A stretch of 36,576 bases of DNA from a virus (taxonomy: Duplodnaviria > Caudoviricetes): positions 1 through 36,576 of the IMG/VR virus record IMGVR_UViG_3300011335_000146, one strand, 5' to 3'. The notes beneath the pieces were generated by a model. It was given only the letters and a program-made list of their open reading frames with translations. It made no database searches and was not told where the DNA came from. Positions 4,555 through 36,576 of the stretch are shown here, piece after piece. Within the stretch, counting starts at the first letter, position 1. Every line of letters starts with the position of its first letter. Position numbers and translations under genes: made by a program.

Positions 4555-5910
4555 ATGTTAGATAAAATCACTGAAAAGCTAGATTCAATTGAATCTAAAG
4601 TTAAGGCAGATACCGAAGTAATGGTTAATGAAAAAATTGCTGAAGCAACTGCACAAGTTGAAGCTGCTAAAGCTGAATTTGCAGAAAAAGTTTCCGCACT
4701 AGAAGCAAAGGTTGCCCAAGTTGGTACGCCTTCAATCGTTCGTGCAAACGCAGGCGTAATGGTTGACGTAAATCGTAAAGTTGCAGAACAACTTTCCGCA
4801 TTCTACAAATCTAATGCTCGTTTAGAAAAAGAAATTAAGTTGTTTGAAGATGCTGCACAGTATGAGGCTTTCCAAAAGGAAGCATCCGCACTGACAGGCG
4901 GCGGTAATAATCAAGGTGGTCGTACTGCTTATGACCCTGTATTCGCACCACTGCGTTTGGCAAATCCAATGCGTGGAGTTAGTCGTGAAGTTGCAACCGA
5001 TGGTTCTTCATATCAGTTCCGCGCTAAGATAGGTAATGCAGGCGCACAATTTGGATATACCATTCAAAACAATGGTGCAGCAACTACCGAAGATACAAAC
5101 ATTTGGCAATTAGTGCTGCAAGATATGAACGTACAGTTCCCAATCCGTACCGCAGCATTGGATGACATTGATGGTTTAGAAGCTAATGTTGTTAGCGATA
5201 TGTTGCTAGAATTTAGCCAACTAGAAGCACAATCAATGATTCAAAACAATGACCAAGTTGCACAAGGTGTTTCAAATCCATATGGCGGCACAAACGGTTT
5301 GCGTGGTCTTGATCAATATGCGGGCGCGGCAGCAACTTATGCAGGCGGTTCAGTAACTACTGCAGCATTTGGTACAAGCGGCACAGGCTCATCAAGCGGT
5401 TTGCATTCACTTGCTACTTATGACCAGTTGACAACTAACGCTAATACTGTAGGCGCAGCAAACATTACTTACAAAGATGTAATTAATCTTGTTTACTCAC
5501 TGCCACAGGAATATTGGACACCAACAACCAAGTTCATCATCAATCCAATATTGCTGCAACAGATTCGCGGATTGACAGATACACAAGGTCGCCCAATCTA
5601 TGTTGATGGCTTGGCTCGCACTGACGGTATTGTTGGTCAATTGCTTGGCTTTGATGTTGTTGTTAATAAATATCTTGACACACCATCACAATTAACAACT
5701 GGCGCGGCAGGTACAAACAGTTTGTATCCAATGTACTTTGCTGATTTTGCACGTTTCCACACAATCGTTGATCGTCTAAGCATGGTATTGCGTAGATATG
5801 ACCAAACATTGCCCGGTTTCATCACCTTCTTTGGCGAAAAGCGTTTAGCAACTTCTGTTGTTAATCCGTTCGCGGGTGTTCGTTACCGTTCAACTGGTAC
5901 AGCTACCTAA
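4555..5910 (+). CDS. Major capsid protein, HK97 fold, with N-terminal coiled-coil delta domain
   Basis: Charged helical N-terminus, then IRGLTDTQGRPIY, LLGFDVVVN and YFADF motifs; AGGA SD. Confidence 0.95.
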   Translation: MLDKITEKLDSIESKVKADTEVMVNEKIAEATAQVEAAKAEFAEKVSALEAKVAQVGTPSIVRANAGVMVDVNRKVAEQLSAFYKSNARLEKEIKLFEDAAQYEAFQKEASALTGGGNNQGGRTAYDPVFAPLRLANPMRGVSREVATDGSSYQFRAKIGNAGAQFGYTIQNNGAATTEDTNIWQLVLQDMNVQFPIRTAALDDIDGLEANVVSDMLLEFSQLEAQSMIQNNDQVAQGVSNPYGGTNGLRGLDQYAGAAATYAGGSVTTAAFGTSGTGSSSGLHSLATYDQLTTNANTVGAANITYKDVINLVYSLPQEYWTPTTKFIINPILLQQIRGLTDTQGRPIYVDGLARTDGIVGQLLGFDVVVNKYLDTPSQLTTGAAGTNSLYPMYFADFARFHTIVDRLSMVLRRYDQTLPGFITFFGEKRLATSVVNPFAGVRYRSTGTAT

Positions 5911-5962: not shown

Positions 5963-7009
5963 ATGGAAAATATGAAAGCCAACGAAAAAATCCTTTCAGG
6001 TATTAAACAGACGCTAGAAACTGGCGATAAGATCACCATTGACTTGCGCGAAGCATCTGCGCTTACTGGAAGCGGTAACAATGTTGGTGGTCGTACTTTA
6101 TTTGATGATGCTTTTGCTGCAATGCGATTTGCAAATCCAATTCGTCAAAATGCAAGAATAGTAAAAAGAGCAGGTCAAAGTGCTATTCAGTTTGTAGCTA
6201 AAACTGGTAACGCAGCTAATCAAACAAATCCGTTTGGATATACGTTTACCGCAGATAGCGGAACGCCAAACACAAACACAACAATCTGGCAATTGCCAAC
6301 GCGAGTTATTACCGCACAACTTCCAGTTCGTAGCGCGGTCTTGTCGGATGTAAACTATTTAGATGAAACATTAGTTGCTGATTTAATGGCTGAATTTGGT
6401 GCTATTGAAGCGCAGTCAATGATTATCAATAATGACCAAGCAGGTTCAACAACCACAAGCACAGGCGGCACAAACGGTTTGCGCGGTTTAAATATGTACA
6501 CTAGTGCGGCTTCTTCTGCTTATGGCACAAGCGGCACAGCAATTACTAATGGTATTCACAGCATTGCTACATATACTCAAGCGGCGGCGGCAATTGCTTA
6601 TGGCGATATTACTGATATGGCTAGATTATTTCCGGCTCAATATTGGAATACACCAAGCACAGCATGGATGATGCATCCACAAACTATTCATGAATTGAGA
6701 AATTTAACTGCTACTGGCGGTAATCTTACAAGGCAATTTACTGAAAATGGTAATACTTTTGGTGGCGCAGTAACTCATATTTTTGGTTTTCCTGTGATAC
6801 CAAACCCATATATGGAAACAACTGGTGCAGGTAAATTTAATGTTTATTTAGCATCATGGGAAAATTTTGTAACGATTGCTGACGTTGAAGAAATGACGAT
6901 ACAAGCATTTGAACAAACTGCGCCCGGTTTTATTACACTGTATGCAGAACGCCGTTTAGCAAGCACAGTTCGTGACCCATTTGCAGGCATTAGATTAGTG
7001 GGTGTTTAA
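5963..7009 (+). CDS. Second capsid protein paralogue lacking most of the delta domain
   Basis: Collinear with 4555-5910: EASALTGxGNNxGGRT, TNGLRGL, APGFITLYAERRLAS. Start may be 5972. Confidence 0.9.
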   Translation: MENMKANEKILSGIKQTLETGDKITIDLREASALTGSGNNVGGRTLFDDAFAAMRFANPIRQNARIVKRAGQSAIQFVAKTGNAANQTNPFGYTFTADSGTPNTNTTIWQLPTRVITAQLPVRSAVLSDVNYLDETLVADLMAEFGAIEAQSMIINNDQAGSTTTSTGGTNGLRGLNMYTSAASSAYGTSGTAITNGIHSIATYTQAAAAIAYGDITDMARLFPAQYWNTPSTAWMMHPQTIHELRNLTATGGNLTRQFTENGNTFGGAVTHIFGFPVIPNPYMETTGAGKFNVYLASWENFVTIADVEEMTIQAFEQTAPGFITLYAERRLASTVRDPFAGIRLVGV

Positions 7010-34397: not shown

Positions 34398-34406
34398 GGA
34401 ATAATT

Positions 34407-34658
34407 ATGAGCAAGCAATTAGATGATGCTATTGAGCATTTAACGACCACTTATCAATCATTAGCACAAGCGGCTGCCGGATACATAAACACATTAGACG
34501 CTAAAGAAGTTGCTGCCGCACTAAAGAAAGCCAAACCAGATACGGCTGAATATGTTGCGCTTGAGCAATTAAATAATCTAATGCAATTAAAGAACAGCAA
34601 ATCAGTTGAGGTTATTAATGAACCTACTGCAATCACTGAAGAACCTGCTGCCGAATAA
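34407..34658 (+). CDS. Hypothetical protein
   Basis: TAAGGA SD; helical with an acidic tail. Confidence 0.75.
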   Translation: MSKQLDDAIEHLTTTYQSLAQAAAGYINTLDAKEVAAALKKAKPDTAEYVALEQLNNLMQLKNSKSVEVINEPTAITEEPAAE

Positions 34659-34683
34659 AACACAACATAAGATAAGAAAAGAC

Positions 34684-34893
34684 ATGAAATTAACAGATTG
34701 GTATAGCGGGAAATTAAAACCCGCTTATGTTGGCGTATATGAACGGCGTTCATCATACGGTTTTAGTCATTACAGTTATTGGAATGGCAAAGAATGGAAG
34801 CAAATGGCATTCACACCAAGCAAGGCAGAAGAATTGCAATGGGATGATTGCAGTTTCTTTCAAACCCTTGAATGGCGTGGGGTTGCTAAATAG
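34684..34893 (+). CDS. Trp-rich hypothetical protein, paralogue of 35758-35967
   Basis: W...P.YVGVYER...YSYWNG..W...WRGVAK. Confidence 0.75.
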   Translation: MKLTDWYSGKLKPAYVGVYERRSSYGFSHYSYWNGKEWKQMAFTPSKAEELQWDDCSFFQTLEWRGVAK

Positions 34894-34894
34894 C

Positions 34895-35231
34895 ACCAAT
34901 ACGCATGGGAATTAGGAAGTTGTATTTGTTTACAGCAAAAGCGATGGGAATCCTTTTCCCTAGTTCCCATTCGTGTTGGTTCCCTCATTGATGAGGGTAG
35001 CAAATTACTAACAACCAAGACGCATGAGAATTGGCATAAATGGCGCACCCGCTGAATGAACCGGCAAATAACGGGTTAATGCCAAGCCGGGCTAACAGTC
35101 CTCAGCCGTGTTGGTAAAAGGGGTATCGCTATAGGACGCTATAGCTACGTTGCATTGTGAGGGCTTTGCGACTGAAATAACCTGCAATGCTCCTGTCTGG
35201 GCTGCAATCCGATGACGATAGGCTACCAACA
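34895..35231 (+). ncRNA. Candidate structured non-coding RNA locus with repeated stems
   Basis: Two ACCAAKACGCATGRGAATT...AGTYCYCAKYCGTGTTGGT units and two TGTTGGT...ACYAACA stems in the largest internal gene-free stretch. Confidence 0.65.
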
Positions 35232-35258
35232 ACATTTAAATATAAAACAGGATAAGAC

Positions 35259-35471
35259 ATGACAAAAGAACTATCAGACATGGAAATATATGCTCTCAAT
35301 CAAATTACTGTTGTAAGCGATGAAGTTTTATTGTTGTTAGATCATCTAAACAACATACGCATACATCCAGATTCCCAATGGGTTGAAAAAGCAAAACATC
35401 ATTTTGAGTTTGCATTTAATGCGCTCAAATATTCAATTGAAAAGCCCGATTTAACCGAAAGTGACGAATGA
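35259..35471 (+). CDS. Small helical hairpin protein, divergent Acb2/Vs.4-like
   Basis: ELSDMEIYALNQI and QWVEKAKHHFEFAFNALKYSIEKPD follow the Acb2 pattern as I recall it; AGGA SD. Confidence 0.5.
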   Translation: MTKELSDMEIYALNQITVVSDEVLLLLDHLNNIRIHPDSQWVEKAKHHFEFAFNALKYSIEKPDLTESDE

Positions 35472-35761
35472 TGACCAGCGATGTGATTCGCATGGCGCGG
35501 GGACGCGATAACCTGTTGTTGCAAATGATAAAGCGTCATTTTCCGCATATCCCAATTGACGACGATGATACTTGGCGTATGTTTCTTGATTTTGCAAATG
35601 AAATCTATGCAACTGGCGCAGCAGCAGAGCGCGATGCGTGTGCAAAGTTTTTACTGTCAACCGATTTAAGTGGTTTGCGTAATGACCTTGTGCTGCAAAA
35701 TTGGACTGCAAATTTACTAACAAATTATGCTGAAGCTATCCTCGCAAAGGGGCAATTATGA
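35468..35761 (+). CDS. Hypothetical protein
   Basis: GAAAERDACAK...AEAILAKGQ motif; ATGA overlaps on both sides. Confidence 0.75.
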   Translation: MMTSDVIRMARGRDNLLLQMIKRHFPHIPIDDDDTWRMFLDFANEIYATGAAAERDACAKFLLSTDLSGLRNDLVLQNWTANLLTNYAEAILAKGQL

Positions 35762-35967
35762 CAGTCACTCAATGGTTTAATCCGCGTAATAAAGAATTCC
35801 CTATTCATGTTGGAGTATATCAACGCAAATGGAATGGGCGGATAACATACAGTTTTTGGACAGGGTGGGGCTGGTGTTATGCTGGCCTGACTGTTGAAGC
35901 TGCTATACGTCAACGACATGATTATTCAATGGAACAATGCGCGATGTGGCGCGGGTTAGCTAAGTAA
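35758..35967 (+). CDS. Trp-rich hypothetical protein, paralogue of 34684-34893
   Basis: WF...PIHVGVYQR...YSFWTG.GW...WRGLAK. Confidence 0.75.
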   Translation: MTVTQWFNPRNKEFPIHVGVYQRKWNGRITYSFWTGWGWCYAGLTVEAAIRQRHDYSMEQCAMWRGLAK

Positions 35968-36451: not shown

Positions 36452-36534
36452 TGTGGATAAGATGTGGATAAAGGCTGTGGATAACCTGTGGATAACCCTC
36501 CAAAACAGGGAAATAACTTAAAATCTGTGGATAA
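36452..36534 (-). promoter_or_regulatory. Cluster of five consensus DnaA boxes (TTATCCACA on the minus strand)
   Basis: TGTGGATAA at 36452, 36463, 36476, 36487 and 36526. Confidence 0.85.
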
Positions 36535-36576
36535 GTTATGCAGCAAGCGCGCGGTTTACTGCGAGGTGCTCGAGGC

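Follow-up and report, generated by a model that had tools for sequence, protein, structure and literature searches.

A phage array of predicted RNase III stalks enclosing exchangeable small-RNA modules

A non-coding array in a lambda-like phage genome is probably an RNase III-processed small-RNA cassette, in which constant stalks enclose one class of RNA module (cargo, A) and, once cut, would lend their outer arm to the closing stem of the next (B). This grading concerns the processing and not the function of the cargo. The original prediction had proposed a modular small-RNA cassette with constant stems as processing handles, and this held up: the stems are predicted RNase III substrates, and both insert classes vary independently of the arms.

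The array and its stalk family

The window, that is the whole stretch of DNA analysed, is an entire viral record of 36,576 bases (97% complete). Its gene order is lambda-like, with terminase, portal, capsid, tail and endolysin genes followed by a leftward recombination block that includes an Erf-like protein, and beyond it replication genes, small genes and an HNH gene. The array lies on the sense strand and fills the interval from a small gene that ends at 34893 to the following gene at 35259, stalk 1 beginning 1 nt past the stop codon of the upstream gene (34684-34893). Both units were found where they had been placed originally (34895-34980 and 35014-35115; Table 1).

Table 1. Features of the window's array, and abiF RNAs in or near arrays at other loci (L numbers). 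Cuts are predicted.
Feature	Position	Strand	Details
Stalk 1, 5' arm (20 nt)	34895..34914	+	Predicted RNase III cut 34903^34904
Cargo A1, two-hairpin junction	34915..34960	+	One homolog, at L002, between tRNA-Tyr and tRNA-Gly
Stalk 1, 3' arm	34961..34980	+	Predicted cut 34973^34974; final 7 nt are also the B1 5' strand
Module B1	34974..35013	+	7-bp closing stem 34974-34980/35007-35013 around hairpin 34982-34997
Stalk 2, 5' arm	35014..35033	+	Predicted cut 35022^35023
Cargo A2	35034..35095	+	Two stacked helices and loop-to-tail pseudoknot 35061-35065/35086-35090
Stalk 2, 3' arm	35096..35115	+	Predicted cut 35108^35109; final 7 nt are also the B2 5' strand
Module B2	35109..35231	+	8-bp closing stem 35109-35116/35224-35231, two conserved inner hairpins, one 3' hairpin
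abiF RNA	L021:1269-1305; L082:1551-1587; L176:73-109; L093:73-109; L284:840-876		

On the + strand the 351-nt array region folded better than all 100 shuffles (z -3.4); on the - strand the signal was weaker (z -1.65, 4/100 shuffles). Taken by itself, unit 1 reached a folding z of -6.7; unit 2, whose stalk has an A.C mismatch at position 16, folded no better than chance (z -1.15, 25/200). The earlier statement that the array is not CRISPR, tRNA or a terminator was upheld. When the 60 window proteins were scanned against PHROGs none matched integrase, Cas or reverse-transcriptase families, an ARAGORN scan of the window found 0 tRNA or tmRNA genes, so that this identity was rejected for the window's modules, and a promoter and terminator scan of the region gave nothing exceeding shuffles. 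Rfam 15, a search of which had been suggested, gave 0 matches in the window at gathering score, and the four matches obtained at E up to 10 in 34400-35500 were all attributable to chance. Four sequencing runs matched, all as contigs and three of them with small shares; one contig from an RNA library is identical to 35030-35182 and is uninformative on transcription or ends.

Searching with the 5' arm alone returned 2 viral loci, and the unsearched 3' arm was present in both. Two-arm patterns returned at least 119 and at least 120 viral stretches (totals estimated at ~290 and ~1,300), and a profile scan of all fetched loci identified 334 units in 261 loci, some contigs among these having been fetched twice. 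Tandem arrays of 2-4 units occurred at 65 of the 261 loci, with the units on one strand in 64 of these 65. The arms were conserved independently of the inserts, which is what a viral-database search had been expected to reveal for a modular system. Bacterial genome contigs gave 70 matches, of which 33 passed the stalk filter and 37 were discarded as chance. Betaproteobacteria are named in the titles of 22 of the 33, isolates of Paraburkholderia, Chromobacterium and Polynucleobacter are among the stalk carriers, and phage-type genes surround both of the stalk-carrying bacterial loci whose neighbours were scanned. The stalk family appears to reside mostly in phages of Betaproteobacteria, with hosts that appear betaproteobacterial. 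When the region and two further units were compared with cultured phages by BLAST, only short chance matches were obtained, and no cultured phage carrying the stalk was found.

The stalk comprises 20 pairs: an outer helix with a frequent G.G at position 6, a 2x2 loop at positions 10-11, and an inner part with covarying pairs at 14-16, a U.G at 18 and a U-A at 19. Each search pattern fixed part of the arms, including positions 7-9 and 12, and positions are quoted where possible from the scan that left them free. The compensatory arm change that had been noticed between the two window units proved to be general: positions 14-16, which the pattern left open, are paired in 130, 127 and 130 of 130 distinct units, through four to five kinds of pair. 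Pairing collapses beyond position 20 (67/130 at position 21 and 49/130 at position 22). At L170 a short hairpin, which we take to resemble lambda boxB, directly precedes the stalk.

RNase III register and sister stalks

Every cleavage register was scored with a pair-count matrix built from 85 in vivo E. coli RNase III stems (Table S4 of Altuvia 2018, PMC6212723). A single register, with a mean of +8.1 bits against at most +0.8 for all others, ranked first in 228 of the 229 distinct stalks, but these stalks are kin, so that the count amounts to about one strong observation, and the matrix stems from E. coli whereas the hosts appear to be Betaproteobacteria. On the opposite strand of the same 229 stalks no register rose above +0.03 bits, and 1 in 20,000 pair-order permutations reached the score of the winning register. 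Window unit 2 scored +10.8 bits at this register and unit 1 only +2.8 bits, its next best register scoring +2.2. Cuts centred on the 2x2 internal loop (-2.8 bits) or at positions 15/16 (-3.1 bits) were rejected.

At the winning register the distal box was U.G in 208/229 and U-A in 218/229 stalks (88/102 and 95/102 where the pattern left it free), and both are present in both window units. The A-U/U-A pair expected at D was found in 227/229 stalks and that at D' in 218/229 (122/130 where free), and the central pairs A' and A were G-C/C-G in 223/229 and 228/229, respectively. Exactly 11 positions (10-20) remain up to the stalk end. A stringent U.G, a canonical UA/UG and an 11-bp minimum are given as RNase III substrate requirements by Pertzev and Nicholson 2006 (PMC1540722). 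The rnc gene was found in 5/5 stalk-carrying bacterial genomes tested. We strongly infer that the stalk is a substrate of host RNase III, predicted to be cut on both strands.

Prophage Qin provided a positive control, since in vivo cuts in its stalk have been mapped to 1649182 and 1649251 (Table S3 of Altuvia 2018, PMC6212723). Register scoring picked exactly these two positions, and this stalk lies outside the 85 training stems because its structural distance is 3. The cut at 1649251 starts a stem-closed B-type module upstream of DicF. Another such module is excised, at the homologous 5' base, by the mapped pair 1649454/1649584, which is within the training set (PMC6212723). DicF itself is released by the sister stalk together with RNase E, according to 10.1101/2023.04.14.536235. 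The Qin stalk shares with those of the window the C-G/G-C central pairs, a mismatch beside the cut, a U.G ten pairs in and 11 nt to the stalk end; it likewise encloses a short insert, and cutting on its 3' side liberates a heptamer with which the following module is closed. In contrast, its stalk sequence is another one, with a bulged base at position 7, where the window family has a paired A-U (229/229), and the window differs from Qin in its tandem units, unrelated cargo and lack of DicF. For the dicBF operon, an RNase III stalk preceding DicF was reportedly noted by Faubladier in 1990.

In lambda, a sister stalk is located right after tR' (44787-44863). Its predicted cuts at 44796 and 44857 fall at +209 and +270 from pR', which we take to be the RNase III sites of Daniels 1988. 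As in the window, stalk and insert are followed by a module closed by the freed 5' strand and lie ahead of late genes, whereas the stalk sequence differs. The region 44787-44940 (L334:387-540) runs from the stalk and insert through a stem-closed module ending in CC to further hairpins before gene S. Copies of the lambda-type stalk occur in Salmonella, Klebsiella and Escherichia phages. This group has the commonest B family in common with the window family, and in 3/4 cultured phages fetched that family comes after a sister stalk whose inner end is the same. Scored with the window-family profile, sister arms from four cultured phages did not exceed +1.9 bits, as against about 10-36 for true arms; as judged by sequence, the Qin and lambda stalks are a sister family, distinct from that of the window. 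The sister arm pattern had only 4 matches in E. coli K-12, with three mismatches each. In Salmonella and Klebsiella phages the arrays open, ahead of the sister stalk, with a reading frame resembling a tmRNA tag (L329:957-1010, L331:~995-1046 and L332:~985-1045), and the permuted-tmRNA matches in L329 and L331 were weak (27-29 bits vs a cut-off of 47).

The suggestion that the system is undescribed was borne out for the stalk family, the reuse of an arm as the closing stem of the next RNA and the cargo libraries, of which no description was found in the open-licence papers and preprints searched; the arm motif had 0 occurrences there. It did not hold for the architecture, which is present with another stalk sequence in Qin, where the cuts are mapped, and in lambda. 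RNase III punctuation of phage transcripts is already known, and Daniels 1988 or Faubladier 1994 may already describe part of the architecture. The present analysis adds a register test that includes a positive control, and it connects the window stalk family with that of Qin and lambda. For the function of the RNAs released by the lambda late-leader and dicF stalks, the open-licence literature searched yielded no description.

Interlocked modules, their exchange and their passengers

The terminal heptamer of each unit had been predicted to pair forward as an alternative to the stalk. This heptamer and one further base close an 8-bp downstream stem in 153 of 277 distinct 3' flanks, compared with 18 in a control region further downstream; 124 flanks have no B stem. 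The two pairings are mutually exclusive, as claimed, and both are conserved. The 5' end of the B stem, delimited separately, falls where the 3' cut is predicted. Before cleavage, pair probabilities in the full precursor are 1.0 and 0.99 for the stalks and 0.0 for B. Since the stalk wins there, the B stem would be the fold of the product, and since the predicted 3' cut frees the B-closing heptamer, the exclusive pairings would correspond to precursor and product rather than to a switch.

We collected 154 B modules in 67 families. A T-arm-like hairpin is stacked on the stem in 47 of them (shuffle mean 5.2, maximum 12), and AC directly follows 97. B1 and B2 of the window are without a stacked T-arm and had no tRNA match. 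B1, for which no homolog was found, is followed by ACCA belonging to the arm of stalk 2. The B2 family comprises 15 other viral loci and follows a 3' arm in 15/15 of these (2 degenerate) and in 8/10 metagenome loci (2 degenerate), two sets that overlap; the metagenome loci with no stalk arm (L342 and L348) are one distinct sequence. Compensatory changes affect 8/35 B2 pairs across 15 sequences, and comparison with homologs assigns the conserved pairing to 35151-35156 with 35169-35174. Two helices initially drawn in B2 had to be given up: the GCATTG/CAATGC hairpin is not kept in 14 homologs, and TATCG/CGATA is broken in 3/15 aligned sequences and competes with two covarying hairpins. The 3' end of B2 is bounded by neither terminator nor stalk.

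The commonest B family (L021:1166-1265 and 33 other B modules) is a tRNA-shaped scaffold with complementary D-like and T-like loops, a loop-loop compensatory change in L082 and L197, and a hypervariable middle where the anticodon arm would be. Matches to it were found in 146 cultured phage records and, with E up to 10, in 1,054/5,426 E. coli genomes; it had no Rfam match.

The 289 distinct units with flanks contain 178 cargo families, which are 20-207 nt long, enclosed by inverted arms and common to different phages. Comparing pairs of units, we found 88 with the same cargo and both flanks different, 6 with the same flanks and a different cargo, and 5 with all three the same, and 0 inverted cargos among the 289. 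The cargos of the window behave likewise, A1 recurring between two tRNAs at L002 and A2 among three other sets of flanks (L092, L174 and L168). L115 carries the upstream gene of the window, and the start of its HNH gene is similar, but its modules are different ones. These comparisons, made at the level of sequence, show that cargo and intervening modules are exchanged freely at the arms. Shuffling among phages by homologous recombination within the 20-nt arms is a moderately supported explanation, and the Erf-like annealing protein is plausibly its agent.

Cargo families retain their fold across unrelated flanks. In A2, 14/14 pairs including the pseudoknot are kept with 2 compensatory changes, in a comparison of only 3 distinct sequences in which 49/500 shuffles scored as high. 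Overall, cargo folding energies are mildly better than control (mean z -0.62, n=267, vs -0.28, n=120).

An Rfam scan of 60 homolog loci at gathering level found only tRNA and abiF RNA, beside or inside the arrays. The tRNAs abut units: in 7 loci the ACCA end of a tRNA forms the first four stalk bases, and in L018, L058, L257 and L298 tRNAs occupy B slots with their first base 6 nt inside the arm. That in L058 has a TTA (ochre) anticodon. We also noted tRNA-like genes with normal D and T arms and a long insert replacing the anticodon arm (L018:1287-1394, L257:2627-2738, L183, L055 and L235). Following one match from the gathering-level scan led to abiF RNA above the Rfam cut-off (43-55 bits vs 37) in or near 5 loci (Table 1). 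Their five records, which are fragments (10-43% complete), contained no Abi_2 match. In L021 the abiF hairpin comes after the last module, is followed by a T run and may serve as a terminator. According to PMC12373285, abiF motifs neutralise the AbiF toxin through binding, and PMC9964418 mentions the motif in a cyanophage.

Possible roles of the released RNAs

In the mechanism that we propose, the stalks would form first in the precursor, and RNase III would cut between positions 9 and 10 of the 5' arm and ahead of the final 7 nt of the 3' arm (34903^, 34973^, 35022^ and 35108^). This would release A1 (70 nt), B1, A2 (86 nt), and B2 joined to the downstream mRNA. The freed heptamer would refold by pairing with ACCAACA, giving an acceptor-like stem that ends in an A-C(-C-A) tail, and where tRNAs are present the upstream one would keep a 5-nt trailer and the downstream one a 1-nt leader for host trimming. 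The released small RNAs could then engage, as decoys or ligands, host defence proteins that bind RNA or attack tRNAs. We favour such a decoy function because the only recognisable passengers are tRNAs and abiF RNA, together with the tRNA-mimic modules. T5 tRNA-Tyr is said to act against retron 78. Phage tRNA clusters and RNA decoys resemble the family in that tRNAs and abiF RNA lie within its arrays, whereas the four modules of the window include no tRNA and no Rfam match, and their decoy role is putative.

That the released RNAs form an exchangeable arsenal against host RNA-targeting immunity is a tentative proposal, which may well prove wrong. We are slightly more hesitant about its extension, by which lambda-like phages might carry a programmable platform: from its RNase III stalks and tRNA-like scaffolds would come a combinatorial library of hundreds of structured RNAs, among them tRNA mimics, pseudoknots and orphan antitoxin RNAs such as abiF, that neutralises host RNA-targeting immune proteins, with the arms serving to shuffle and the lambda late leader as minimal member. 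The original prediction had also considered the constant stems as protein-loading handles and proposed a check for co-occurring genes. No partner gene recurred near 164 loci other than ordinary phage genes, which speaks against loading handles; the largest neighbour protein cluster (45/164 loci) is terminase-like by look.

RNase III helices cut polycistronic RNA at the intercistronic sites of T7 and T3 and in the processing stalks of rRNA. The window family resembles these in its repeated optimal RNase III helices and, as in rrn operons, in tRNAs between stalks; it differs in that the stalks enclose hypervariable, exchangeable non-coding cargo and in that their outer arm serves a second time, in the stem that closes the RNA after it. 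By analogy with T7, the stalks could be mRNA punctuation that gives the downstream packaging or late mRNA a stem-protected 5' end, with the inserts mostly dispensable. Arrays indeed often lie just upstream of same-strand terminase genes (the 45/164 loci above, terminase by look), a sister stalk is located in the lambda late leader, B2 continues into the downstream genes without a terminator and cargo folding is only modestly above control. However, one cut would suffice for this purpose, yet 65/261 loci carry 2-4 tandem units, cargo families keep their pairing with compensatory changes across unrelated flanks, and real tRNAs and abiF RNA are present in the same arrays. We consider this account, which is compatible with a processed cassette, unlikely though worth serious weight.

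The cargos could instead be base-pairing RNAs, and a guide or antisense role had been among those originally envisaged. DicF in Qin, derived from a sister stalk plus RNase E (10.1101/2023.04.14.536235), provides a precedent, and a diversity of 178 families in 289 units would suit such a role. Against it, the longest matches of the four window modules to the rest of the phage genome were 10-12 nt, equal to shuffles, the cargo ends are locked in stems, cargo variation is compensatory with the fold kept across unrelated flanks, and neither a conserved effector at the 164 loci nor a Cas, integrase or reverse-transcriptase match among the 60 window proteins was found. We regard it as improbable. 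CRISPR and TIGR guide arrays have fixed-length unique spacers, direct repeats and an adjacent effector gene. A guide array of this kind was rejected for the window family, in which cargo of variable length, shared between phages, lies between inverted arms, with no conserved partner and no Cas match.

A conformational switch in the uncut leader, of the attenuator or riboswitch type, might account for two pairings that exclude each other and are both conserved; it is very improbable, as the precursor pairs in the stalks (1.0 and 0.99) and not in B (0.0), neither state is tied to a terminator or start-codon pairing, and the overlap is already explained by the predicted cut. Integron attC sites have extrahelical bases, a single crossover point and an integrase, and the idea that the arms are attC-like single-strand DNA hairpins for site-specific cassette exchange, to which breakpoints in the arms and a GTT/AAC-like core at the ends might point, deserves still less credence: the stalk is symmetric with no extrahelical bases, both arms act as breakpoints unlike the single attC crossover, inverted cargos number 0, no integrase matched among the 60 window proteins, and conserved G.U pairs and strand asymmetry indicate RNA.

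The predicted processing provides exact RNA ends for many phage RNAs that lack annotation (in this sample, 178 families of cargo and 67 of B modules) and ties two old observations, dicF and the lambda late-leader RNase III sites, to array RNAs. If the cargos are decoys, each would point to a host RNA-binding defence protein, and if the platform reading is true, the arrays would correspond, at the RNA level, to anti-defence gene islands. The design of stalk plus scaffold amounts to a natural multiplexed small-RNA expression cassette.

Some further features of the window were recorded. Two copies of the unknown family phrog_26541 (34684-34893 and 35758-35967) flank the array region, and a perfect 16-nt inverted repeat (32010-32025/34855-34870) has its halves 2.8 kb apart within coding regions. 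Two adjacent genes, 4555-5910 and 5963-7009, each match major head protein families. Immediately upstream of the terminase genes lies a cluster of TGTGGATAA repeats (36452-36545), which we take to resemble DnaA boxes.
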